From NCBI GenBank assembly GCA_026417875.1, contig JAOACK010000006.1:1201-65200 (forward strand): 64,000 bases of DNA, in the 5' to 3' direction. A program made the translations under genes and the position numbers. Each line of letters opens with the position of its first letter. Within the stretch, counting starts at the first letter, position 1. Shown piece by piece: positions 4,880 to 21,328 of the stretch. Origin of the DNA: Thermodesulfovibrionales bacterium. GTDB lineage: Bacteria > Nitrospirota > Thermodesulfovibrionia > Thermodesulfovibrionales > CALJEL01. Under the pieces are notes generated by a model, which was given only the letters and a program-made list of their open reading frames with translations, had not been told where the DNA came from and did not search any database.

Positions 4880-5530
4880 TTAAATACCAGCAATTAGGAC
4901 AAAACCGTCTATAGGGTTACCACTCCTGGTCTTAAATTTCCTTACCTCAAATTCAATAATTTTATACCCAGTGTTTATGACAAGTTCCATAATCTCTTTG
5001 GACTCGAAATGGTGTGCAAGATAGAGTATGTTTCCATCTGAATCCCTGACATAGAATGTGCCCTTCTCTAGCCCACAGCTTATACCCTCTTCATATCTCT
5101 GTCTGTAAAGGGGAATGTTGTAATTCTGTAAAAAATCAGCAATATAAAGTAGCCCATTATTTCTCAGCAAATCTCTTATCCTTCTAAGCACTTCCACTCT
5201 TAAAGCCTCATCCACTAAAGTAGTCATGAAGGCATTCATAATTGCAATATCATAGCAGCCATCAATGTGTGAATTACATATGTCAGCAGTGATAAAGTTT
5301 ACATTCGGCAGCCTGAGTGACTGTGCCTTCTGGTTTGCCCTTTCAATGGCAGATTGATTAATGTCTACTCCTGTAACACTGTAACCTAGTAAACCAAGAG
5401 CCAGAGCAATGTTCCCGTTTCCGCAGCCAACATCAATAATTCTATACTCTGGCTTTAAGTACTTGAATAATAAATAATCTGGTTTTACAGTTGATGGTAT
5501 GCTTGCTGTCTTGCTCCAGAAATTATCCAT
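4880..5530 (-). CDS. Class I SAM-dependent methyltransferase
   Basis: Motif I IIDVGCGNGNIALALG, acidic loop VTGVDIN, post-I ITADI. Own AGGTGG Shine-Dalgarno 4 nt upstream of ATG 5530. A 186-nt gap separates it from the upstream operon. Confidence 0.8.
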   Translation of the reverse strand: MDNFWSKTASIPSTVKPDYLLFKYLKPEYRIIDVGCGNGNIALALGLLGYSVTGVDINQSAIERANQKAQSLRLPNVNFITADICNSHIDGCYDIAIMNAFMTTLVDEALRVEVLRRIRDLLRNNGLLYIADFLQNYNIPLYRQRYEEGISCGLEKGTFYVRDSDGNILYLAHHFESKEIMELVINTGYKIIEFEVRKFKTRSGNPIDGFVLIAGI

Positions 5531-5715
5531 ATGACCACCTAAATTTACTTACACACTATCTGTAATTAATGAATTCTTTTGGAAGACCAATAGATATCCT
5601 TTCACGCCCGAATGCCACAACAGAAAGTTAAAGCTGGAGATATTAAGGTCATTATATTTTTATCTACTTGATAAACAGAATTAAAATCAGAGGCCTGTTA
5701 CCTGCTATTTTTAAA

Positions 5716-6069
5716 TCATTCCGGCACCGGAGTACCGTTAATGAATATCTCTAAAATCTTTGCTATCGAATTTATCTTGCCAGCTAAAATTCTTTTCTGA
5801 TAGTCTGGATGGTTCCTGTCTATTTCCTCAGCAAACCAGTTGAACTTCATCACAAGGTCCTCTATGGAATCCACATAGAGACCTACTGCACAGTTATATG
5901 AAGGACACTCAAGCACAACAGGTTTTGCATCCTTATCTTCAGGAGGATAAATCTCTCTGTCAACACCTTTTGAGAGATAAAGTGCCATCTCTTCAGGTTG
6001 CTCGAAAAATAGAAGCCTGCGTCTCTCATCAGGTGGGTAGAGGCAGCTGTGACATACAGGAGGTTTCAT
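5716..6069 (-). CDS. Hypothetical small protein with CxxC and Cx4C cysteine pairs (possible zinc ribbon) and a helical C-terminus
   Basis: ORF track gives 5716..6084 from a TTG. I prefer ATG at 6069 (MKPPVCHSC...) because a TATAAT hexamer (6081-6076) ends 7 nt upstream and neither start has an SD. Motifs CHSC and CPSYNC. No family recognised. Confidence 0.5.
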   Translation of the reverse strand: MKPPVCHSCLYPPDERRRLLFFEQPEEMALYLSKGVDREIYPPEDKDAKPVVLECPSYNCAVGLYVDSIEDLVMKFNWFAEEIDRNHPDYQKRILAGKINSIAKILEIFINGTPVPE

Positions 6070-6110
6070 GTTATTATTATACAAGATAAGGTTGTTTTTT
6101 ATCTATTTGT

Positions 6111-6593
6111 TCATAAAAAGCTTCTGTGCATAGGGCCCCAAGATTCATATGTTCCGCTAGCCTTATCAAAATGATAAATTGTAACAGATGCATTACTAAA
6201 AACCTCTCCGGTAATTAATGCACCAACAACTGGTCCTCTGTAAAATAGATGAATTCTGTCAGCACCTTTCTCCATGGCTCGGGCTTTGAGTCTGTGCAAT
6301 TCTCTTACAAAATTGTCCAGATCTTCTTTTTTCAACTCTGGAGATGAATATTTTATCAGTTCTGAATTAATACCGTTTTCCTGCAAAAAAAGTCTTACCT
6401 GGTTTTCGCTCTCTCCGGGCCCAAAATCTATAAGGATTGCTACCGGTCTGTTTCCCTTTGCAGCTTCAAGACTCTGAATTAATATCTTCTGTCTCTTCTT
6501 CTGCGTATATATCATCCACCATGAGGATATTACAGGTAAAGAAACAATTATGCCAATGATTATATTTATCCTATCAAGCAGATCCCATAACAT
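6111..6593 (-). CDS. Membrane-anchored protein with a single Rossmann-like SAVED/CARF-like module
   Basis: N-terminal TM helix IIIGIIVSLPVISSWWMIY. It is followed by alternating strand/helix segments: PVAILIDFGPG, then RIHLFYRGPVVGALITGEVF, then VTIYHF. These resemble the conserved hLF..aP.a.a.l.G...v.vY block of SAVED sensor domains. Start lies 4 nt after the SPFH stop. Confidence 0.6.
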   Translation of the reverse strand: MLWDLLDRINIIIGIIVSLPVISSWWMIYTQKKRQKILIQSLEAAKGNRPVAILIDFGPGESENQVRLFLQENGINSELIKYSSPELKKEDLDNFVRELHRLKARAMEKGADRIHLFYRGPVVGALITGEVFSNASVTIYHFDKASGTYESWGPMHRSFL

Positions 6594-6597
6594 ATCC

Positions 6598-7482
6598 TTA
6601 TGACCCTTTATGAAAGATTTCGGAGAAGACCTTTGTTAATTCAATCGGTATTATAAACTTTGTAGATTGAGATGTGCCAATACTCCTTAAAGTCTCAAGA
6701 TACTGAAGGTTCATTGTCTTCTGGTCAATGTCCCGTGCCACTGAGAATATTTTATCAAGGGCAATTGAGTAACCCTCTGCCTCAAGTATCCTTGCCTGAC
6801 GTTCACCCTCTGCTCTTAGTATCTGAGCCTGCTTTATACCCTCTGCCTCAAGTATCTTTGCCTGTTTTTCTCCCTCTGCCTTGAGTATCTGTGATTGCTT
6901 CACTCCTTCTGCCTCTGTTACCATGGCACGCCTGGTCCTTTCAGCTGCCATCTGCTTTGTCATTGCATCCTTTACCTCTTTTGGAGGTGTGATCTCCCTT
7001 ATTTCCACAGCAGTAACCTTAACACCCCACCTGCTTGTAACCTCATCTAGTTTTATTTGCAATTGTTTGTTTATCTCTTCTCTTTTGGAAAGCACATCAT
7101 CAAGAGCTATATCGCCTATCACAGCTCTTAATGTTGTAGTTGCAAGTCCCCTTGCTGCAATTTCGAAATTCTGAACGCTAACTATGGAAATTACAGGATC
7201 TATTACCCTCATATATATTAGAAAATCTATTGATATGGGAGCATTATCCTTTGTTATACAGGTCTGTTCAGGTATATCAATTACAAATTCTCTTAGATCA
7301 ACACGCACAGGCCTATCAATAAGTGGAATAATTAGTGTTATACCTGGTCCCTTTGCTCTTTCAAGAACCCTTCCCAGTCTGAATACAACAATCCTTTCAT
7401 ATTCTTGCGCTATCCTGATAGCCGAAACAAGAAAGAGGATTAAAAAAGTAAGAATTACTACAATTGATATGGACAGATTCAT
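6598..7482 (-). CDS. SPFH/band-7 family protein (stomatin/QmcA-like)
   Basis: N-terminal TM anchor, then EYERIVVFRLGRV, GPGITLIIPLIDR, TLRAVIGDIALDDVLSKREEIN, and a C-terminal AEGxKQAxIL hendecad repeat region. Strong AAGGAGGG SD 6 nt upstream. The start shares one base with the upstream stop (TAATG). Confidence 0.9.
   Translation of the reverse strand: MNLSISIVVILTFLILFLVSAIRIAQEYERIVVFRLGRVLERAKGPGITLIIPLIDRPVRVDLREFVIDIPEQTCITKDNAPISIDFLIYMRVIDPVISIVSVQNFEIAARGLATTTLRAVIGDIALDDVLSKREEINKQLQIKLDEVTSRWGVKVTAVEIREITPPKEVKDAMTKQMAAERTRRAMVTEAEGVKQSQILKAEGEKQAKILEAEGIKQAQILRAEGERQARILEAEGYSIALDKIFSVARDIDQKTMNLQYLETLRSIGTSQSTKFIIPIELTKVFSEIFHKGS
6769..6915 (-). repeat. Coding 33-nt (11-residue) tandem repeats inside the SPFH gene
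   Basis: Protein repeats are ILKAEGEKQAK / ILEAEGIKQAQ / ILRAEGERQAR / ILEAEGYS. At nucleotide level the unit ctgcctcaagtatc(c/t)ttgcctg recurs. This is the typical SPFH C-terminal coiled coil. Confidence 0.7.
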
Positions 7483-7736
7483 TATAGACCCTCCTTTATT
7501 TTTTTGTTTATGTCTCTCAATTCGTCTCTGATATCAATAAAAAGATAAATCAAAAAAGCACCAAGGATTACAGCAGCTATACCGAATACTATAATAATTA
7601 AAAAACTTATAACATTAAATCTGCCAAATCCCGGTATAGATGCCATCAAGTATGCATACAGAATAGTCGTGATTATCCCAAAAATTACCGCAATACCTAC
7701 CAAAGGCTGCCCAATTTTTAAGATAAAGTTTTTCAT
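7482..7736 (-). CDS. Small integral membrane protein (two predicted TM helices, charged C-terminal helix)
   Basis: Hydrophobic stretches LVGIAVIFGIITTILYAYLMA and VISFLIIIVFGIAAVILGAFLIYLFI. GGAGGG SD 6 nt upstream, immediately after the CARF gene stop. Its stop overlaps the SPFH start. Confidence 0.65.
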   Translation of the reverse strand: MKNFILKIGQPLVGIAVIFGIITTILYAYLMASIPGFGRFNVISFLIIIVFGIAAVILGAFLIYLFIDIRDELRDINKKIKEGL

Positions 7737-7750
7737 ACACTTCCCTCCTA

Positions 7751-8905
7751 TTATTCATTAATTTTAATCTTTGTCTTTTCTATCCTAATACCGTACCTAG
7801 TAGCACCATAAATCTTAAATGAGCTTATTTGGCAAAAGGGTAAATATCTTTCATCAATTTCATCTTTGATTGCCTTGTTAATCTTTGTTATATACTGTCT
7901 TAAAGATTCAATACCTATTCCATCCCTCCACTTTTCTTTTAAATCTTCAGCCTTAAATGGCTGACCCCAGTAAATCTTCTTATAATCCTCTGCCATCTTT
8001 TCAAGAGCCTGCCTTGAGGAAAAGTCAATAAGAACAGGAAAACAATCAATACATTCAAGACAATATAATCTTTCAGGATATTTACAATGCTCTGTCTTTT
8101 GTCTGAGAAAGGCTGTATAAATCATTAAGTGCACAGGAATCATTTCTACTGTATGAGAACCAACCATGACAGTCCTTTCCCTGAGGTTTACTTGAAGAAC
8201 TGGCTGGAGCATAGCGATGTCTATTTCTTTCTGGCCTTCTTCAACGAGCTCTTCAAATTCTTTACCATGAAACTCAATTTTACTTCCTAATCTAATAAAA
8301 GGCAATTCAGCAAGTTCAATCTTCGCATTGTCGGTGTTGAGCTCTATAATCTCTCCATCAGACCTTCTGGCTTTAATAATTTTATTTAGCTTTGGCTTAT
8401 AAAAAAACTCTGGATTTGATTCAAACTCTTGACTCACCAGTACATGATAAAGTCTATCCCAGGGTCGTCCAAAAAGCTGAAGCGCTGAACCAAGATAAAA
8501 ACCCATTGTCTTTCTTCCACCAGCCAGGGAACAGTGAAGTCTTGATCTCGTATCTTTAGCCTTATCTCTTATAAAACTGGTAATAAAATTACCAGCTAAT
8601 GTATTATCCTCTTTATCTCTTATATCCTGTAACTCCTCTCCAAAAGCATTCTTTATTACCAATATTGAATCCTTAGTTAGAGGGATCTCAGGAATGCCAT
8701 ATTCTTTCTTAAATTCTTCAAAAATCCTCCTTTCAAAAAAGGCATCTTCAATTGCCTTCTTGCCTGTTGAAGTCGTAATTACAAATATCTCATCTGGATA
8801 GACAGGAGGTTCTTTTGTTACAAGGGCATAAAGGGTTTCTGTAATTATCTGAGGTGTTGCACCTGCAACAAAAATAAAAACCTCTTTAAATTTTTCTTCC
8901 TTCAT
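7751..8905 (-). CDS. CARF-domain protein of the Cas_NE0113/TIGR02584 type fused to an OmpR/PhoB-like winged-helix domain with a 4-Cys insert
   Basis: N-terminal half has VFIFVAGATPQIITETLYAL and LHCSLAGGRKTMGFYLGSALQLFGRPWDRLYHVLV, the family signature blocks as I recall them. C-terminal half: LQVNLRERTVMVGSHTVEMIPVHLMIYTAFL ... LRQYITKINKAIKD ... ISSFKIYGATRYGIRI resembles trans_reg_C. Insert is HC-x7-C-x2-C-x2-C (nt 8042-8086). Confidence 0.75.
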   Translation of the reverse strand: MKEEKFKEVFIFVAGATPQIITETLYALVTKEPPVYPDEIFVITTSTGKKAIEDAFFERRIFEEFKKEYGIPEIPLTKDSILVIKNAFGEELQDIRDKEDNTLAGNFITSFIRDKAKDTRSRLHCSLAGGRKTMGFYLGSALQLFGRPWDRLYHVLVSQEFESNPEFFYKPKLNKIIKARRSDGEIIELNTDNAKIELAELPFIRLGSKIEFHGKEFEELVEEGQKEIDIAMLQPVLQVNLRERTVMVGSHTVEMIPVHLMIYTAFLRQKTEHCKYPERLYCLECIDCFPVLIDFSSRQALEKMAEDYKKIYWGQPFKAEDLKEKWRDGIGIESLRQYITKINKAIKDEIDERYLPFCQISSFKIYGATRYGIRIEKTKIKINE

Positions 8906-8911
8906 GAAAGA

Positions 8912-8940
8912 ATTATAAAAAAATAAATAATCTAAGGCAA
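8912..8940 (-). promoter_or_regulatory. Candidate sigma-70 promoter of the CARF operon; geometry implies a leaderless transcript
   Basis: Minus strand: TTGCCT (8940-8935), 17-nt spacer, TATAAT (8917-8912). ATG at 8905 is 7 nt after the hexamer. No SD. Confidence 0.45.
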
Positions 8941-8945
8941 GGCTA

Positions 8946-8966
8946 GAAATGTTTCAGAAATATTTC
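8946..8966. promoter_or_regulatory. Tandem 11-bp direct repeat GAAATGTTTCa GAAATATTTC (each unit an internal palindrome); candidate operator
   Basis: GAAATGTTTC at 8946-8955 and GAAATATTTC at 8957-8966, with an 11-bp period. It lies 5 nt upstream of the -35 of the CARF promoter. Confidence 0.35.
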
Positions 8967-9153
8967 CAATAATATCATAATCTTATTTGCACTCTGGATA
9001 TCCGGTTCAGGTTCATGAGTCTTTATGAAAAAAAACATATTAAAACCACCATTACTGATAAAGAATAAAGCAACCTTCTTTACTTTTCGATGAAAAAAAG
9101 AGGCGATTCAGCTTAGAAAATGAACCTAGGGACGGTCAAAGCCTTTGCTGATA

Positions 9154-9162
9154 TGTTATTAT
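9154..9162 (+). promoter_or_regulatory. Candidate extended -10 element (TGtTATTAT) for secA
   Basis: TG at 9154-9155, hexamer TATTAT at 9157-9162. secA ATG at 9169 follows 7 nt later. No SD. Confidence 0.35.
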
Positions 9163-9168
9163 ATTAAA

Positions 9169-11850
9169 ATGATTGGATTTTTACTGAAAAAAATCTTTGG
9201 CACCAAGAATGAGAGGGAGCTCAAAAGACTCTGGCCTATTGTCCACAGAATAAACTCCCTTGAACCAGCTGTAGCAGCTCTTTCCGACCTCGAACTCAGA
9301 AAGAAGACCGATGAATTCAGAGAACGACTCATCAATGGTGAGACCCTTGATGACCTCCTTCCTGAAGCCTTTGCTGTTGTAAGGGAGGCAGGAAAAAGAA
9401 CTATCAATATGAGACACTTTGATGTACAGCTCCTGGGAGGTATAGTGCTTCATGAAGGAAAGATAGCAGAGATGAAAACCGGAGAGGGTAAGACCCTTGT
9501 CGCAACCCTTCCCCTTTATCTTAATGCTCTTGAGGGAAAGGGCTGTCATCTCGTTACTGTGAATGATTATCTTGCAAAAAGAGATGCCCAGTGGATGGGT
9601 CCGATTTACAATTTTCTTGGACTTTCTGTAGGTGTGATTCAGCATGACGCCTCCTTTCTCTATGACCCCAATTATCGCTCCACTGACAAGAGATTTGACA
9701 GGCTAAGACCCTGCACCAGAAAAGAGGCCTATCTGGCAGACATAACCTATGGCACAAATAATGAGTTCGGCTTTGACTATCTAAGGGATAATATGAAATA
9801 TGATATAAATGACTACTGTCAGAGAGAGCTTCATTATGCAATAGTGGATGAGGTTGATAGTATACTAATAGACGAAGCAAGGACACCACTCATAATATCA
9901 GGACCTTCAGAGGAATCAACAGGGAAATACTACCATGTTGACAAAGTTGTAAGAAAACTTCAGAAGGACCTTGACTTCACGATTGATGAAAAGGCAAGAA
10001 CTGTTATACTGACAGAGGCAGGAATCCACAGGGTTGAAAAGCTTCTGGGTGTTGATAATCTTTATGATCCATCAAATATAGATCTTGTCCATCATGTCCT
10101 ACAGGCACTAAAGGCCCATCACCTCTTTCACAGAGATGTGGACTATGTTGTAAAGGATGGAAAGGTTATTATAGTTGATGAATTCACAGGTAGGCTCATG
10201 CCGGGAAGGCGTTGGTCAGATGGTCTCCACCAGGCTATTGAAGCAAAAGAGGGATTAAAGATTGAAAGCGAAAACCAGACCCTTGCAACCATAACATTCC
10301 AGAACTACTTCAGAATGTATAAAAAGCTTGCTGGGATGACAGGTACTGCTGATACCGAGGCAGAGGAATTTGCCAAGATATACAATCTTGATGTGGTTAT
10401 AATACCAACCCATAAACCGATGATAAGGGTTGACCATCCAGATCTTATTTATAAGACCGAGAAGGCAAAGTTTGATGCAGTGGTAAAAGAGATTGAGGAA
10501 TGCCATAAAAGAGGTCAGCCTGTCCTAGTAGGAACAATATCAATAGAAAAATCAGAACGACTTAGCCAGATGCTGAAGAAAAGGGGGATACCCCATTCTG
10601 TATTGAATGCCAAGTATCATGAAAAGGAGGCTGAAATAATTGCACAGGCTGGAAGGCTTGGTGCTGTAACCATTGCAACAAATATGGCAGGTCGAGGCAC
10701 GGACATCATTCTCGGTGGAAATCCTGAAGGTCTTGCGAGGATCTGGCTCAGGGAGAAAAAATCCGACTGGACGGACGAAGAATTTCAGGAGGCCTTAAAA
10801 AAGGCAGAGAAGATATGTGCAGAGGAAAGGCAGAAGGTTATAGAAGCTGGAGGGCTTCATATAATAGGAACAGAAAGACATGAGGCAAGGAGAATAGATA
10901 ACCAGCTCAGAGGCCGTTCCGGAAGGCAGGGTGATCCAGGTTCATCAAGGTTCTATCTATCCCTTGAAGATGACCTAATGAGAATCTTTGCCTCGGATAG
11001 AATCTCTGGCCTGATGGATAGGCTCGGCATGGATGAAACAATACCAATTGAAAACAGGCTTGTCACAAAAGCAATAGAGAATGCCCAGAAAAGGGTTGAG
11101 GCACATAATTTTGATATAAGAAAACACCTGCTTGAATACGATGATGTCCTCAACAAACAGAGGACAGAGATATACAGGTTCAGAAGGGAGATACTTGAAA
11201 GCGACAATCTAAAGGATCACATCCAGGGCATGATTGAAGATACAGTGGATGAACTCATAAACCTCTACTGTCCTTCTGAATCCCATTTTGAAGAATGGGA
11301 TCTGAAAGGTCTCAGGGATAATCTCTGGAGTATCTTCTCCTTTAATGAAGAACTTAAACCATCTGAGAATATGAGAGACCAGATAATTGAATCCCTCTTT
11401 GAACTTTACAATAGAAAGGAACAGGAAATAGGCCCTGAATTCATGAGATATCTTGAAAAGGTATTCCTTCTCAGTGTTGTTGACAGTCAGTGGAAGGATC
11501 ATCTTCTTGCCATGGATCATCTTAAGGAAGGGATAGGACTCAGGGGGTATGCTCAGAGGGATCCCCTTGTGGAGTATAAAAGGGAAGCATTCCATATGTT
11601 TGGAGAACTCAAGGAAAGAATAAACAGGGAAGTCCTAACAAGACTCTTCAAGGTAGAAATAAAGAAAGAAGAGAAGGCTCCAACTATTAACCTGAGAAGA
11701 CCTGTTTTTGCTTCAAGCAGCCTGAGCTATAATAAAGATGACGGAAGGGGGCCAAGGGAACCGGTACATGTTAAGAAGATAGGAAGAAATGATCCATGTC
11801 CCTGCGGAAGTGGAAAGAAGTACAAAAAATGCTGTGGAGTGAATGCGTAA
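9169..11850 (+). CDS. secA: Preprotein translocase ATPase SecA
   Basis: [21 protein letters not shown] aligns residue-for-residue with the E. coli SecA N-terminus, so I use ATG 9169 rather than the track TTG 9145. MKTGEGKT Walker [20 protein letters not shown]-terminal zinc motif [14 protein letters not shown]. Confidence 0.97.
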
Positions 11851-13243
11851 AATCATACTCATAGGAAAAAATTCCTCAAGGGATGATTACTGGCAGGTTC
11901 TACGGGAGCTAGGCCAGGAGGTCCTGAGATTTACAGATGTAAAGACTGCATTAAAATTTCTTAATTCCTCTAATAACAATGCAACACTAATAGTGATTGA
12001 CCGCGAAGAAATTAAAAATCCACACCATAGAAAATTTAATTATCTTACAAGAAGCATACCAAGAATAATTTTATATGAAAACAACCAGAAAGGTATTCTC
12101 CAGCATCTAAGGCACTCCTTCACCTTTCCCCTTTACATACCTAAACCAGAAACTCTACTTCAGGTTTCGAAAAACCTGATCAATATAAAAAATATTCATG
12201 AAGAGAATGAATTATTAAGAGCAGAAAACAGAGGTACAAAAAGGGAACTACAGTTTTTTGAAGAGATAAGCAAGATACTGACCTCTTCACTGGAACTTGA
12301 CGAGATGCTTAAATTCATTATGAAAAAGGCTAAGGAGATAACCCGTGCCGATGCCTGGTCAGTACTTCTACTGGATGAAGAAAGCAATGAGCTTATATTC
12401 AAAAATATTGAGGGAAAGAAAAAAAAGGACCTTTACCAGATGAGGGTAAAAATGGGTGAGGGAATAGCCGGATGGGTTGCAAGGGAAAGAGTGCCTGTAA
12501 TAGTTCCAGATGTATCCAAGGATAGCAGATTCTCCTGCAGAATTGATAAGGTTATTCACTTCAGGATAAGATCTCTACTATGTGTGCCAATCATAAGTAA
12601 AGATAAATGCATTGGTGTCATAGAACTTGTCAGCAAGAACAAGGAAAAACCATTCACAAAGGATGATCTTGATTTTATGCTCAAACTCGTTGACCATGCT
12701 GCTCTTGCGATTGAGAGAGCAACCCTCTATCAGAAAATGGCAGAGCTTGTCATAACAGATGACCTCACAAAATTATTCAATACAAGATATCTACACAGAA
12801 CCCTTGATACAGAAATATACAGGTGTGATAGATATAAGACATCGCTTTCTCTTATATTTATGGATGTTGATCACTTCAAACAGATAAATGATACATACGG
12901 ACATCTTGTTGGAAGCAAGCTCCTTGTGGAAATTGCCCAGCTTCTTTTAAAGCATTTAAGGTCAGCGGATATTGTTGCCAGGTACGGTGGAGATGAATAT
13001 GTAATAGTCCTTCCTCAGACACCGCCTGATGCTGCTGCAAGGATAACAGAAAGACTCAGAAAAAACATTGAACAGAACATCTTTTTAAGAAAGGATGGTT
13101 ATTTTATAAAAGTCACAGCTAGCTTTGGAGTTGCCTCCTATCCCGAGAGTGCAAAAACAAAAGAGGAACTTCTCAGACTTGCTGATGAAGCAATGTACCG
13201 GATTAAAAACACGACGAGAAACGGAGTTTATGCAATAATCTGA
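11843..13243 (+). CDS. Pseudo-receiver / GAF / GGDEF diguanylate cyclase
   Basis: The N-terminal REC-like fold lacks the acidic pair (ILIGKNSS). A central GAF domain follows. C-terminal GGDEF domain has [14 protein letters not shown]: an intact RxxD I-site 5 residues before the A-site, with the A-site variant GGDEY. Start overlaps the secA stop by 8 nt. Confidence 0.85.
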
Positions 13244-14181
13244 TGGCCCTATTCAATTACGCTACAAAGGAGATCATCCTCAAGATTGTCTATTACGGTC
13301 CCGGGTTAAGTGGTAAAACCACGAATCTTGAGGTCCTCCATAAATCCTTCTCACCTGAATCGGTGGGAAAGCTCATATCGCTTTCAACAGAGGCAGACAG
13401 GACGCTTTTCTTTGACTTTCTTCCAATAGAACTTGGCAGAATAAAAGATTTTACCCTCAGATTTCAGCTCTATACAGTTCCAGGACAGGTAAGATATAAC
13501 TCAACAAGAAAGCTGGTCCTTAAGGGTGCTGATGCAGTTGTGTTTGTTGCTGACTCCCAGCGGCAGATGAGAGAACAGAACATAGAAAGCTTCCAGAACA
13601 TGAGGGAGAATCTTATTGAAAATAATATTGACCCTGATGATATTCCAGTTGTCCTTCAGTACAATAAAAGAGACCTGCCAGATATATTATCGGTTCAGGA
13701 ACTTAATAATGACCTAAATCTTAGATGGTATCCATACATTGAAGCAGTGGCAATTAATGGAACTGGTGTCAAGGAGACCTTTCAGGCGGTAACAGAACTA
13801 CTCATTAAACACCTTTCAAAAAAATACTCTATTAAAATGAAAGAGGCCGGAATTATAGAAGTAACTCCGCCAGTACAAGCAAAAGAAGGTCCAGCTCTTA
13901 CTGAAGAGAAAAGAGCCCCAGCGATTGATTCCCATTCCATAATAGAAGATATTTATACAGAACTCAAAAGACTGTCTGAGAGGATAGAAAAGATTGAAAA
14001 GATAGTCATTGAAAAAAATCAAAAGGCTCTCACTTCTGAAAGCATCGAGAGTCAATTAATTCAGATACAGAAAAATCTTTCAGAACTTTATAAATCCCAT
14101 AGGGATATGATAATCCAGTTAAGAACTGTATATGACATCCTGAGCAAGGCTAGACTTGAAAAAAAGGGTATATTTTTCTAA
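13243..14181 (+). CDS. mglA: MglA-type Ras-like small GTPase with a ~115-aa coiled-coil C-terminal extension
   Basis: KIVYYGPGLSGKTTNL (P-loop), LISLSTEADRTLFFDFLP, LYTVPGQV, LQYNKRDL. It is near-collinear with Myxococcus MglA over about 195 aa. An extra tail occupies 13828-14181. TGATG overlap with the upstream gene. Confidence 0.85.
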   Translation: MALFNYATKEIILKIVYYGPGLSGKTTNLEVLHKSFSPESVGKLISLSTEADRTLFFDFLPIELGRIKDFTLRFQLYTVPGQVRYNSTRKLVLKGADAVVFVADSQRQMREQNIESFQNMRENLIENNIDPDDIPVVLQYNKRDLPDILSVQELNNDLNLRWYPYIEAVAINGTGVKETFQAVTELLIKHLSKKYSIKMKEAGIIEVTPPVQAKEGPALTEEKRAPAIDSHSIIEDIYTELKRLSERIEKIEKIVIEKNQKALTSESIESQLIQIQKNLSELYKSHRDMIIQLRTVYDILSKARLEKKGIFF

Positions 14182-14183
14182 CC

Positions 14184-15380
14184 ATGGATGTATCAGATTT
14201 TTTCTTAAAACTTCTTGTAATTCTTCTCAGCGCAAAACTATTTGCAGAGTTATTCGCCTTAATGAACCTTCCTACTGTTCTCGGAGAGGTTGTAGCAGGA
14301 ATAATAATAGGGCCGAGCCTTCTTGGAATAATCGTCCCTGATGCAACATTTTATCTCCTTGCTGAAATAGGAATCCTTCTTCTTCTCTTTGAGGTTGGAC
14401 TAGAAACAGATGTAGGTCAACTTGTTAAAGTAGGTCTTCAATCATCGCTCGTTGCTCTTACGGGTGTACTGCTGCCAGCCCTTGCCGGCTTCTGGATAAG
14501 CAATCAAATCTTTCATCTTCCATTTATTGTATCTCTTTTTATCGGAGGAACTCTGGTGGCAACAAGCATCGGTATTACTGTTAGAGTGCTTGTTGATCTT
14601 AAAAAACAACATACAAAGATTGCAAAGATCGTTCTGGGTGCCGCTGTTCTCGATGATATTGCCGGTGTTATAATACTGGCTGTGCTTTATGATTTCGCTG
14701 TCACTGGAAAGATTGAGATTATCAATACTGCAAAGGTAATGGGATTCATTACAGTCTTTTTATTAATTGCACCTTTGTTTACGAAGCTTCTTGTTCCAGT
14801 TATATCAAGACTTTCCTCCATAAGCAGGACAAAGGGTATGATACCAACTATTATCGTCTCCCTGATTCTCGGGCTCGCGGTCATATCCCATGGTGTTGGA
14901 GCTCCTGAAATACTCGGCTCATTTGCAGCAGGAATTGCCCTTGCAAGAAGATTCTTTCTTCCACTTGGTGCTACAATAGAACATTACAGCCATGAGCTTG
15001 CAGAAAGAATAGAGGTGAATATGAAGCCAATTATAGACCTCTTTGTACCTGTGTTTTTTGTAATAGTTGGTGCATCAATTAATTTAAAGGTGATTGACTT
15101 TACATCTCCCCTCTTCTGGCAGATAGCCCTGTTACTTACTCTTGGAGCAGTTACAGGCAAGATGTTGAGCGGCATATGGGTCAGAGGGGGGATCAAAGCA
15201 AAGCTTTCCACCGGAATCGCAATGGTTCCAAGAGGAGAGGTTGGCTTAATATTTGCAGAGGTTGGTAAAAAAAGTGGAATATTTGACGACACCATTTATG
15301 CGGTAATGGTATTCGTGGTTGCCCTGACAACTTTATTTGCACCATTATTATTAAGGTATTCAATGAAAGGAGAGAAATAA
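14184..15380 (+). CDS. Cation:proton antiporter (CPA2/Kef-type Na+/H+ exchanger family), no KTN domain
   Basis: About 12 hydrophobic helices. The N-terminus LLVILLSAKLFAELFALMNLPTVLGEVVAGIIIGPSLLG is typical of the Na_H_Exchanger family. Start lies 2 nt after the mglA stop. Confidence 0.85.
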   Translation: MDVSDFFLKLLVILLSAKLFAELFALMNLPTVLGEVVAGIIIGPSLLGIIVPDATFYLLAEIGILLLLFEVGLETDVGQLVKVGLQSSLVALTGVLLPALAGFWISNQIFHLPFIVSLFIGGTLVATSIGITVRVLVDLKKQHTKIAKIVLGAAVLDDIAGVIILAVLYDFAVTGKIEIINTAKVMGFITVFLLIAPLFTKLLVPVISRLSSISRTKGMIPTIIVSLILGLAVISHGVGAPEILGSFAAGIALARRFFLPLGATIEHYSHELAERIEVNMKPIIDLFVPVFFVIVGASINLKVIDFTSPLFWQIALLLTLGAVTGKMLSGIWVRGGIKAKLSTGIAMVPRGEVGLIFAEVGKKSGIFDDTIYAVMVFVVALTTLFAPLLLRYSMKGEK

Positions 15381-18536: not shown

Positions 18537-20105
18537 CTATTGTTTTATCTTAAGAAGTTTGTATTCAATGCTATCAACAAGGGCCTGCCAGGATGCCTCA
18601 ATTATATTCTCTGATACACCTACCGTACCCCATCTTTCATGCTCATCACCTGATTCAATGAGGACCCTCACCTTAGCTGCGGTTCCTTTTCCTGGCTGTA
18701 GGACCCTGACCTTGTAATCGTGCAGTTTTACATTTTTTAGGGCTGGATAAAATCTCTCAAGCGCCTTTCTGAGAGCATTGTCAAGGGCGTTTACCGGTCC
18801 ATCTCCTGTTGCAGCTGTATGTTCTATATGACCGGCTACTTTAACCATTATGGTTGCCTCGCTGAAGGGTTCACTTCCATCCTTTCTCTTCTCCACTATT
18901 ACCCTGAATCCAAGTAGTTCAAAAAATTTTCTGTAAAGCCCGAGATGCTTTTTCATAAGGAGTTCAAAGGATGCCTCTGCTGCCTCAAACTGGAATCCCT
19001 GATTCTCAAGCTCCTTGAGTGTTGATAGGAGGTCTTTCAATTCAGGTGAATCAGTATTAAGCCTTATGCCGAATTCCTGTGCCTTTCTTATAATATTGCT
19101 CTTTCCTGCCAGGTCACTGAGAAGCACCCTCTGAGAATTTCCAACAAGCTCTGGCCTTATATGTTCATAGGTCTCAGGATTCTTTAGTATGGCACTTACA
19201 TGAACCCCGGCCTTATGAGCAAAAGCGCTGTCTCCAACAAAGGGCTGACGCTTGAAATGTCTCAAATTGGCTATCTCGTTGACAAATCTTGAGACATCCC
19301 TTAGTTTTCTGAGGTTTTCATCAGAAAGACATCTGTAGCCAAGCTTTATCTGGAGATTGGGTATTACGGAGCAGAGATTGGCATTTCCGCACCTTTCACC
19401 AAGTCCGTTTATCGTTCCCTGAACCTGTACTGCTCCTTCCTGAACAGCAATAATTGAGTTGGAGACAGCACAGTCAGAATCATTATGGGCATGAATTCCA
19501 ATAGGTATTTTTATCTCTTTCTTAACAGCCCTTACGATCTCTGCTATCTCACCAGGAAGGCTGCCTCCATTTGTATCGCACAGTATAATCCTGTCTGCTC
19601 CCGCAGATTCTGCTTCCTTAATACATTTAAGAGCATAATCAGGATTCCTCTTATATCCATCAAAGAAATGTTCTGCATCAAAAAATACAAGTGGCACCCT
19701 TTTTTTAAGATAGCTTATTGAATCAAAAATGAGTTTCAGATTCTCATCTAAAGTGCACCTCAGTGCCTCCTTTACATGGAAATCCCAGGTTTTCCCAAAT
19801 ATGGTAATGACCTCAGTGGAAGCCTCAAGAAGCTCCTTCATAAGGGCATCCTCAGATGGTCTGTGCCTTGGTCTGCAGGTACTTCCAAAGGCAACGAGCT
19901 TTGAATTCTTCAATTTAAGCTTCTTTGCCTTTTTGAAAAACTCTGTCTCTCTGGGATTAGAACCGGGCCAGCCACCTTCAATAAAAGGAATTCCGAATTC
20001 ATCAAGCTTCTCAGTAATACGGAGCTTATCTTCTACAGAAAAGGATACATCCTCAGATTGTGCACCGTCTCTGAGAGTTGTATCGTATATCTCAATCCTC
20101 TTCAT
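18537..20105 (-). CDS. cimA: Citramalate synthase / 2-isopropylmalate synthase family enzyme
   Basis: [15 protein letters not shown]-like motif, [13 protein letters not shown], and a C-terminal LeuA-dimer-like regulatory domain. 522 aa, typical for CimA. Confidence 0.8.
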
Positions 20106-21328
20106 AGGTTCGCTGCCTTTCCTAGCTCAAAGGCTTCATGTAGAACCCTTACAGCAAGCTCTGTATATTTTGCTTCAATAAGACAGGAGACCTTTATTTC
20201 TGATGTACTTATTGCCATTATATTTATACCATGATTTGCTAATGTCTCAAACATCTTTGCCGCTACACCAGAATGTGTTCTCATACCAACTCCCACAATA
20301 GAGACCTTTGCGATATCCTCTCTCATATCAACGCCCTGTGCACCCAGCTCCTTTGCTATACCCTCAGTTATGGCTAGTGCTTTTTTAGCATCTGTTTTGG
20401 GTACGGTAAAGGAAATATCTGCTGCCTTTCCATCACTTGATACATTCTGAACAATCATGTCTACAACTATATTGGCATCTGCTATTGCTTTAAAAAGTTT
20501 TGCTGCAATACCTGGTCTGTCAGGAACAGCCTTAATAGTAATCTTTGATTGATTCTTGTCATAGGCAACGCCTGATACCACAACCTTTTCCATATCTTTA
20601 TCCTCCTTTGTTACAAGTGTCCCAGGATTGTCGTTAAAACTTGACCTAACTACAACAGGCACATTGTATTTCATGGCAAACTCCACAGATCTTGTCTGGA
20701 GCACCTTTGCTCCGAGACTTGCAAGTTCAAGCATCTCTTCATAGGAAATTCTGTCAAGCTTCCTTGCCTCAGGAACTATATTTGGATCAGTTGTGTAAAC
20801 TCCATCAACATCTGTGTATATCTCACAGAGGTCTGCATTGAGTGCAGCAGCAATAGCTACAGCAGTTAGGTCAGAACCACCTCTTCCAAGTGTGGTAACA
20901 TCATCGTTCTCGGTTATCCCTTGGAATCCAGCAACGACCACTATATAACCCTCGTCAAGGGCCTTTTTTGCCCTGTCTGCCTCAATTCTTTCAATCCTTG
21001 CCTTTGTGTGAACCGGCTCTGTTATGATACCCATCTGTCTTCCTGTTAGTGCGATAGCTTTTTTACCTAGCGCCTGGATAGCCATAGCTGTTAGGGCAGT
21101 GGTTATCCTCTCACCGGATGAAAGCAGGAGATCCATCTCTCTATCACTTGGAGAATCAGAGACCTCATGGGCAAGTTTTATGAGCTTGTCTGTCTCACCA
21201 GCCATTGCGGAGACAACCACAACAATCCTGTGTCCCTCATCGGCAGTTCTAACCACTCGCCTGGCCACCGACTTTATCCTTTCAACACTGGCAACAGATG
21301 TTCCGCCATACTTCTGGACAATGAGCAT
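20102..21328 (-). CDS. lysC: Aspartate kinase
   Basis: [12 protein letters not shown] amino-acid-kinase start and two C-terminal ACT repeats. I prefer ATG 21328 (AAGGAG SD 9 nt upstream) over the track GTG 21334, which is only 3 nt from the SD. Confidence 0.92.

Follow-up and report, generated by a model that had tools for sequence, protein, structure and literature searches.

A putative cyclic-oligoadenylate-responsive CARF regulator with an OmpR/PhoB-type winged helix and a conserved four-cysteine insert, encoded by an orphan operon of a Thermodesulfovibrionales bacterium

We analysed a 64,000-nucleotide stretch of a Thermodesulfovibrionales genome (contig JAOACK010000006.1, positions 1,201 to 65,200; hereafter the window), in which a minus-strand gene at positions 7751–8905 encodes a 384-residue protein. 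The gene product is likely to be a transcription factor of the CARF5/NE0113 family that responds to cyclic oligoadenylates (cOA), the second messengers of type III CRISPR systems. Its N-terminal half is a CARF domain retaining all conserved ligand-site residues, and its C-terminal half shows the OmpR/PhoB winged-helix fold in the AlphaFold2 (AF2) model, enlarged by a loop with four conserved cysteines (Cys4). Most members of the family head type III-A or III-B CRISPR operons, while the window copy is an orphan paralogue that heads a minus-strand operon without adjacent cas genes. The original prediction for this gene, made from the letters of the DNA, had described a CARF domain joined to an OmpR/PhoB-like winged helix with a C-x7-C-x2-C-x2-C insert, and this description was borne out by hidden Markov model (HMM) matches, AF2 and Foldseek. 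The further proposal of a ligand-gated transcription factor now appears very likely, as the region 8906–8970 named there holds a conserved palindrome that recurs at the promoters of the family. The features of the gene and of its promoter are as follows.

7751–8905, minus strand: regulator gene, CARF5 (NE0113-family) domain plus predicted winged helix, 384 aa (open reading frame list, translation, family matches)
8273–8887, minus strand: CARF sensor domain, residues ~7–211 (Pfam, NCBIfam, PADLOC, Foldseek)
8210–8257, minus strand: segment after the CARF domain (AF2 secondary structure), with a lower predicted local distance difference test (pLDDT) score of 67–81
7754–8203, minus strand: predicted OmpR/PhoB-type winged-helix domain, residues ~235–384 (AF2, Foldseek, hhalign)
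8033–8089, minus strand: Cys4 insert, residues 273–291, HCKYPERLYCLECIDCFP, between α1 and α2 (AF2, homologue conservation)
7859–7912, minus strand: predicted recognition helix, residues 332–349, ESLRQYITKINKAIKDEI (AF2), placed by global hhalign on PhoB α3, RTVDVHIRRLRKAL
7787–7828, minus strand: C-terminal β-hairpin or predicted "wing", residues 360–373 (AF2 strands 360–365 and 368–373)
8946–8966, no strand: operator-like palindrome of 21 bp, GAAATGTTTCAGAAATATTTC, in which GAAAYRTTTC occurs twice with an 11-bp period; it ends 41 nt before the ATG
8912–8940, minus strand: sigma-70-like promoter, -35 TTGCCT (8940–8935), 17-nt spacer, -10 TATAAT (8917–8912) (promoter scan, 10 of 12 matches)

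The CARF half and family membership

The open reading frame (ORF) starts with ATG and contains exactly all the peptide strings quoted in the original prediction; its product is identical to a protein (P0001) of a Thermodesulfovibrionales metagenome-assembled genome (MAG). By sequence, the protein belongs to the NE0113/TIGR02584 ("CARF5") family, with scores above the curated cut-offs. Pfam Cas_NE0113 (PF09623) matches residues 17–211 (1.2e-43; 149.7 bits with regard to a cut-off of 23), NCBIfam TIGR02584 matches residues 10–210 (3e-64; 216.8 bits with regard to a curated cut-off of 80.65) and the PADLOC model "CARF5--CARF" covers the full length, residues 7–383 (2e-101). The whole protein is also matched by PADLOC PDLC01036 ("WYL/Csx1, CARF+WYL C", 1.2e-48), a label that looks like a naming artefact because neither the model nor the fold search gave any hint of a WYL domain.

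CARF motif I reads GATPQ (G15, T17) and motif II GGRKT (G129–K132), and the residues G15, T17, G129, G130, R131 and K132 are all invariant in the homologue alignments. In the full-length AF2 model (pLDDT 89.7) Foldseek superposed the N-terminal half on CARF domains from Cad1, Cam1, Csm6 and Sso2081 (Crn1), the last being a ring nuclease. The CARF domain of Cad1 was the only solved relative found by sequence when the PDB was searched with the family profile (E = 0.002), and the family-profile alignment puts GGRK(132)T on GGYK(106)T of TaqCad1, in which K106 is needed for cyclic tetra-adenylate (cA4) binding and for ring cleavage (PMC12669630).

The C-terminal half resembles OmpR/PhoB winged helices

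When the C-terminal 173 residues were modelled alone, AF2 returned a winged helix over residues ~235–384, with a pLDDT of 91.8 and a predicted template modelling (TM) score of 0.86. Three short strands are followed by α1 (257–272), the Cys loop (273–291), helices 292–311 and 316–325, the long helix 332–349, a short helix, the β-hairpin 360–373 and a final strand. In the Foldseek search of the PDB the top match was E. coli CadC (E = 0.026, TM-score 0.58 on the target), and BaeR, ArlR, RpaA, CovR, NsrR (0.61), SaeR, VicR, AdeR and OmpR came after it. OmpR/PhoB-type DNA-binding domains thus make up 12 of the 13 best matches, with target-normalised TM-scores of 0.28–0.61 and weak E-values of 0.026–0.65; winged helices of the ArsR/SmtB type had a much lower Foldseek probability and were ranked after the OmpR type.

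The comparison profile for hhalign was built of seven well-known domain sequences, those of PhoB, OmpR, KdpE, ArcA, CpxR, CadC and ToxR. Against this small profile the C-terminal profile of the family aligned with a probability of 83.6% (P = 8e-6) over residues 235–269 only, that is the β-sheet and α1, the stretch aligned against PhoB being PVLQVNLRERTVMVGSHTVEMIPVHLMIYTAFLRQ, and the OmpR signature "L.ld...r.v...g..i.L.p.Ef.lL" aligns with the family profile. A LuxR/NarL-type control profile reached 0.2%. The global hhalign register, drawn from the same seven sequences, puts ESLRQYITKINKAIKDE on the PhoB recognition helix, YGATRYGIRI on the wing and YPER of the query on HPER of PhoB in the α1–α2 connector. 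Residues R336, K341 and N343 of the predicted recognition helix are conserved, and Y366 and G372 of the wing are invariant in close homologues. PDB sequence searches with the single protein and with the family profile gave no match to the C-terminal half, and no true OmpR-type regulator was found in the window or in the family loci.

A search with the C-terminal 173 residues alone through 1.84 billion cluster representatives returned 113 clusters, 58 of them with proteins of 300–450 aa that end in this domain and so share the architecture of the window protein; the remaining clusters are mostly of shorter proteins, probably fragments. No new fusion partner of the domain was found among the 113 clusters. 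One 1515-aa candidate of this search (P0135), a filamin-like repeat protein, was rejected as spurious.

A putative palindromic operator at fixed positions of family promoters

Alignment of the upstream region with that of a 74%-identical relative (locus L003) showed diverged flanks and one conserved block, GAAATATTTCTGAAACATTTC in the window (gene strand) and GAAACCTTTCTGAAATGTTTC in L003. Copies of the operator pattern GAAANNTTTCNGAAANNTTTC were then counted in 1.2 Mb comprising the window and the family loci, with permuted palindromes of the same composition as controls. We found 35, 30 and 23 copies at zero, one and two mismatches, respectively, compared with 0, 0 and 2–5 for the controls; the 35 exact matches lie in 26 of 82 loci. 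The window holds a single match at up to two mismatches, the site 8946–8966 (0.11 expected). The NN positions of the pattern are nearly always Y-R, and the unit is therefore a 10-bp palindrome, GAAAYRTTTC, repeated with an 11-bp period.

Nearly all copies are intergenic and occupy three stereotyped places. At the family gene's own promoter, the site ends 40–43 nt, mostly exactly 41 nt, before the ATG, the spacing seen in the window as well. At the effector operon, the site starts in the stop codon of the family gene, 46–56 bp before cas10/csm1 or 139–189 bp before cmr1. The third, distal place is after csx3 or cas6 and before cas2. In locus L077 this distal copy (19438–19458) precedes a CRISPR array (19539–21028; repeat GTAGGAATAGGACCTCTGAATAAGAAGGGATTGCGAC), with ~80 bp between it and the first repeat, which suggests that the regulator also controls transcription of the CRISPR RNA (crRNA) precursor.

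In the window only 6 nt separate the -10 element from the ATG (8905), and the mRNA is therefore probably leaderless. When the 41-nt spacers of 24 loci were stacked, they shared one order, i.e. the operator, ~5 nt, TTGa (-35), ~17 nt, TAnaaT (-10), 6–7 nt and the ATG. This spacing of operator, -35, -10 and ATG is common to ~20 family loci (for instance 9931–10003 in L008, 9940–10003 in L044 and 8903–8966 in the window), in which the mRNA of the family gene appears to be leaderless. With a leaderless mRNA the window operator spans about -61 to -41 and abuts the -35 element without covering it.

As the palindrome is conserved at fixed promoter positions family-wide, there is a strong, though indirect, indication that members of the family bind DNA specifically and would control expression of their own gene, of the effector operon and of crRNA or adaptation genes. 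The 11-bp tandem period of the operator fits the practice of the OmpR family, whose pho boxes have an 11-bp tandem periodicity, and its internal two-fold symmetry fits a symmetric CARF dimer. Promoter-proximal OmpR sites likewise abut the -35 element without covering it; by this analogy, the position of the operator beside and not over the -35 leans slightly toward activation.

The family mostly heads type III CRISPR loci

A locus scan with one genome per species yielded 222 relatives, from which 80 loci were kept and their neighbouring genes clustered and named. Type III effector genes are encoded on the same strand within 6 kb downstream in 46 of the 51 loci that have at least 4 kb of downstream sequence. 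Two arrangements prevail. One comprises cas6, the family gene, sometimes a four-helix-bundle gene, cas10/csm1, csm2, csm3, csm4, csm5, a gene for a 384-aa protein and csx3; this 384-aa protein (cluster 9) has no NCBIfam match and its gene sits where related loci have a Card1/Can2-like gene. The other, found for example in Syntrophorhabdus, consists of the family gene, cmr1, cas10/cmr2, cmr3, cmr4, cmr5, cmr6 and csx3. The co-encoded partners are Card1/Can2-like, Csx3/Crn3 and TIGR02710 proteins, of which the first two belong to families reported as cA4-linked. Most of the host genomes are from Nitrospirota/Thermodesulfovibrionales, Syntrophorhabdus, Desulfobacterota, Aminicenantes and Geobacter; one Methanosarcinales MAG, one Nitrosomonas MAG and one Nitrospira MAG are also among them.

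A conserved four-cysteine insert in the α1–α2 connector

The cysteines Cys274, Cys282, Cys285 and Cys288 (encoded at nucleotides 8086–8042) are spaced C-x7-C-x2-C-x2-C. All four are invariant in 120 of 120 listed homologues of 52–100% identity. We also aligned the protein with 58 full-length representatives of 50%-identity clusters (n = 59), down to ~25% identity; cysteine occupies the four positions in 50, 54, 54 and 53 of these 59 proteins, the C-x2-C-x2-C part is fixed while the spacing between the first and the second cysteine varies, and five representatives lack all four. Every full-length family protein of the 80 genome loci carries the motif, and the carriers include a MAG labelled Nitrosomonas (L081) and one labelled Nitrospira (L071). 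In the alignment of 2014 (PMC4012209) the insert is missing from NE0113 itself and from other proteobacterial members.

Because the global register puts YPER on HPER of PhoB, the Cys loop can be regarded as an elaboration of the α1–α2 connector. Compared with an OmpR-type domain, the protein has ~45 additional residues, which make up the Cys4 loop and two further helices, and the loop may buttress the two helices that follow it. In the OmpR family this connector lies away from the DNA. Since the four cysteines are invariant and are lost all together, it is plausible from the sequences that the loop binds a metal, and a structural Zn(II) held by the four cysteines seems fairly likely; it would lend rigidity to the enlarged α1–α2 region. 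Medium-chain alcohol dehydrogenases have a structural Zn(Cys)4 site with the spacing C-x2-C-x2-C-x7-C, the mirror of the insert.

Proposed mechanism and alternative explanations

In the mechanism that we propose, the CARF dimer would bind the type III second messenger, most likely cA4, as the partners encoded beside the family are Card1/Can2-like, Csx3/Crn3 and TIGR02710 proteins. Ligand binding would shift the seating of the two winged helices on the operator, so that infection would raise the expression of the regulator gene, the csm/cmr operon and the CRISPR array or adaptation genes, via either activation or relief of repression. The regulator may also slowly cleave the messenger. In the window, the single operator would control the regulator's own leaderless operon.

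Several observations weigh against this proposal. Pfam Trans_reg_C (PF00486), or any other domain, gave no match to the C-terminal half in 62 diverse members at E-values up to 10; because of these 0 of 62 matches we describe the domain as OmpR-type by fold and distant homology and not as a member of the Pfam family. The second half of the C-terminal domain aligned alone by hhalign gave P = 0.026, which is not significant. The choice of cA4 derives from the neighbouring genes alone, the 64-kb window has no type III system, so that a signal source elsewhere in the genome is assumed, and no experimental work on any member of the family was found in the literature searched. Finally, the name given to the family by NCBI, "CRISPR-associated ring nuclease Csm6" (TIGR02584), would make cOA degradation the main role. 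In agreement with this name, the closest solved CARF domain, that of TaqCad1, degrades cA4 and the motif II lysine is conserved. A protein that mainly acts as a ring nuclease ending cOA signalling, with a structural or oligomerisation domain at the C-terminus and no specific DNA binding, would however leave unexplained the palindrome at a fixed spacing from the promoters of its own gene, of cas10/cmr1 and of cas2 or the CRISPR leader, as well as the OmpR-type fold, in which recognition helix and wing are conserved; moreover, many of the loci already encode Csx3, a dedicated ring nuclease. We consider such a role very unlikely, and ring-nuclease activity is compatible with a cOA-responsive transcription factor as a self-limiting feature and not as an alternative to it. 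The lack of cas genes and of a CRISPR array in the 64 kb could also mean that the window gene is left over from a type III locus that has been lost, and is decaying or without function. This is extremely improbable given that the ORF is intact and keeps every family-invariant residue, that operator, promoter and their spacing are intact, and that the orphan operon is conserved with 74–79% protein identity in at least three other assemblies (L003, L004, L087), in one of which (L087) csx3 is added.

A different question is what the four cysteines hold. A ferredoxin-like CxxCxxC run among four invariant cysteines could bind an Fe-S cluster, probably [4Fe-4S] on CxxCxxC and the remote cysteine, in which case the regulator would combine the cOA signal with redox, oxygen or iron status. 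The majority of hosts come from groups known as anaerobic (Thermodesulfovibrionales, Syntrophorhabdus, Desulfobacterota, Aminicenantes, Geobacter, Methanosarcinales), and the Cys-less relatives in the 2014 alignment include NE0113 of the aerobe Nitrosomonas europaea. Nevertheless, Nitrosomonas and Nitrospira are aerobic genera and MAGs of both labels carry the motif, for which reason we rejected its restriction to anaerobes; the spacing mirrors the zinc site of the alcohol dehydrogenases; acidic residues stand beside the ligands (C-L-[DE]-C-x-[DE]-C); the neighbourhoods show no redox biology; and no homology to Fe-S regulators of the FNR, IscR, SoxR or WhiB types was found in Pfam, NCBIfam, PDB sequence and fold searches. 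An Fe-S cluster at the Cys4 site is hence unlikely, and so is the coupling of cOA signalling to redox, oxygen or iron status built upon it. The integration of redox or metal status put forward in the original prediction thus gained no support, in view of the zinc-like spacing and the lack of an anaerobe-only pattern, while the cysteines proved to be conserved and the winged-helix fold was borne out by the AF2 model. We assign a fairly low probability to a more far-reaching pair of ideas, namely that the Cys4 site is an Fe-S or redox-active site gating type III expression on both cOA and the redox or iron state, and that the orphan operon is an undescribed membrane effector module driven in trans by type III signalling.

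Comparison with known systems

Regulators of the CARF–winged-helix kind that sense cOA, such as Csa3, are already known, and the NE0113 family is already annotated. Makarova et al. listed NE0113 and its relatives in 2014 as "pfam09623_CARF_RECHTH, no_toxin, HTH", often with type III-A systems, and predicted that NE0113, like Csa3, regulates transcription directly; the sole HHpred evidence listed for the "RECHTH" label was a NarL/LuxR-type match of a short (~296-aa) member (PMC4012209). The novelty claimed for the protein in the original prediction was therefore overstated as regards the family, annotated as CRISPR-associated and as a predicted HTH regulator since 2014, and holds for the Cys insert, of which no description was found in the literature searched. 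The window protein belongs to the NE0113/PF09623 family by HMM, and the family is mostly type III-linked; it differs from the 2014 description in the OmpR-type domain of its clade, whose profile has no LuxR similarity, and in the position of the window copy away from cas genes. The PADLOC label "CARF5--CARF" implies that no effector domain has been assigned to the C-terminal half. A global survey of type III effectors from 2024 put predicted transcription regulators aside for future work, and a ring-nuclease survey from 2025 left out proteins above 250 aa.

With Csa3, known from archaea and bacteria as a cA4-binding transcription factor, the protein would share the logic of a CARF dimer that senses cA4 and a C-terminal winged helix that binds CRISPR-related promoters, and the CARF folds are distantly similar (6wxq, E = 0.019). 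In contrast to Csa3, it belongs to another CARF clade, carries an OmpR-type winged helix with an N-terminal β-sheet and the Cys4 insert, and its family is predicted to serve type III and not type I-A loci; Csa3 is listed without ring-nuclease activity, which the window protein may have, judging by its motif. The order of β-sheet, α1, α2, recognition helix and hairpin wing is that of OmpR/PhoB domains, including the one-component regulators CadC and ToxR, but the domain is fused to CARF instead of a receiver and each operator repeat is itself palindromic. Cad1, in which CARF5 is joined to an adenosine deaminase, has the closest solved CARF domain by both sequence and fold, with GG[RY]KT in common, whereas its output domain is a hexamer-forming deaminase and not a DNA-binding one.

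As far as can be told, what is new here are the OmpR-type assignment together with the conserved Cys4 insert, the operator and promoter architecture, the predicted regulon and the orphan operon with SPFH and transmembrane (TM)-SAVED genes. How bacteria control the transcription of their type III CRISPR loci has hardly been charted. The present family, which heads such loci in many of the retrieved bacterial genomes and in one archaeal MAG, is directly testable, since it now has a defined operator, a fixed promoter architecture and a predicted regulon made up of its own gene, the effector operon, and the CRISPR leader or adaptation genes. Furthermore, a Cys4 site within an OmpR-type domain poses the question of structural zinc versus a sensing cluster, and the orphan copy suggests that a cOA-responsive regulator can, after duplication, be put in charge of a new membrane module.

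The orphan operon of the window

No cas homologues were found in the 64 kb by tblastn with 17 cas and ancillary clusters, and no CRISPR array was detected. The regulator gene is followed on the minus strand by the genes listed below, of which the first three form a tightly packed operon with it.

7482–7736, minus strand: 84-aa protein with two hydrophobic segments, second gene of the operon (ORF; homologues at the same position in L004 and L087)
6598–7482, minus strand: SPFH/Band-7 membrane-scaffold protein, 294 aa, third gene (Pfam Band_7, 7.7e-38)
6111–6593, minus strand: 160-aa protein with an N-terminal TM helix and a SAVED/CARF-like domain (PADLOC, Pfam)
5716–6084, minus strand: 122-aa Cys-containing protein of unknown family, conserved neighbour (41% identical to a 126-aa protein of L087)
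4880–5530, minus strand: class I S-adenosylmethionine-dependent methyltransferase, conserved neighbour (Pfam Methyltransf_31 and related families)

The 84-aa protein has no match in the family-library scans, and orthologues of the SPFH protein with 88–89% identity are encoded in the same operon of L003 and L087. The 160-aa protein is matched by the PADLOC models "SAVED4--SAVED_TM" (9e-23) and "CARF, 2 TMs" (2e-21) and by Pfam SAVED (1e-8), and it is likely, from these matches, to be a cOA-sensing membrane effector. Its family is small, with 16 clusters. In other genomes (L083–L085) the TM-SAVED gene is embedded in a type III locus, where it follows the genes of the effector complex and precedes a Card1-like gene and csx3; in two of these loci (L084, L085) it comes directly after csm5. 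Like Cam1 and other membrane CARF-SAVED effectors, the 160-aa protein combines an N-terminal TM helix with a small cOA-sensor-like domain and occurs in type III loci; unlike Cam1, its sensor is SAVED-like, has only ~125 residues and is paired with an SPFH/Band-7 protein. No link of SPFH proteins to type III CRISPR was found in the literature searched.

The module recurs beside the closest relatives of the regulator, in L003 (74% identical regulator), L004 (79%) and L087 (78%). In L087 it additionally has csx3, for the cA4 ring nuclease Crn3, after the SAVED gene; the 126-aa protein gene beside the module has its own operator copy 69 bp upstream, and the methyltransferase encoded after csx3 is 45% identical to that of the window. 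The module with its conserved neighbours extends over 4880–7736 (minus strand) in the window, and the corresponding stretches are 6627–7998 in L003 and 1596–4545 in L087; it may represent a cOA-linked membrane module that has not been described before. The MAG 21H_026.bin.27 holds both the orphan copy with the SPFH module (L003, 74%) and a type III-A-linked paralogue (L010, 59%); their operators are near-identical, and cross-regulation between the paralogues is therefore possible. In our reading, the window operon is a satellite of type III signalling, a membrane-effector module that would respond to signals produced elsewhere in the genome. A duplicated regulator and a duplicated membrane sensor would here have come together with an SPFH scaffold under control of the family operator.

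Within the SPFH gene, positions 6772–6915 of the window form a 33/66-bp tandem repeat that encodes a repeated 11-residue coiled-coil segment, A-E-G-E/K-Q-A-x-I-L. Genes divergent from the regulator (9145–15380) are of housekeeping or signalling types and encode SecA, a GAF-GGDEF diguanylate cyclase, a small Ras-like GTPase and a Na+/H+ exchanger. As secA and a P-type ATPase gene also flank L086 and L003, the orphan module lies in a conserved chromosomal neighbourhood with no obvious mobile element. Elsewhere in the window, two minus-strand tRNA genes (1071–1144 and 1156–1228) overlap the 5' end of the mechanically called plus-strand ORF 1106–2179, and the true start of this ORF is therefore probably further downstream.

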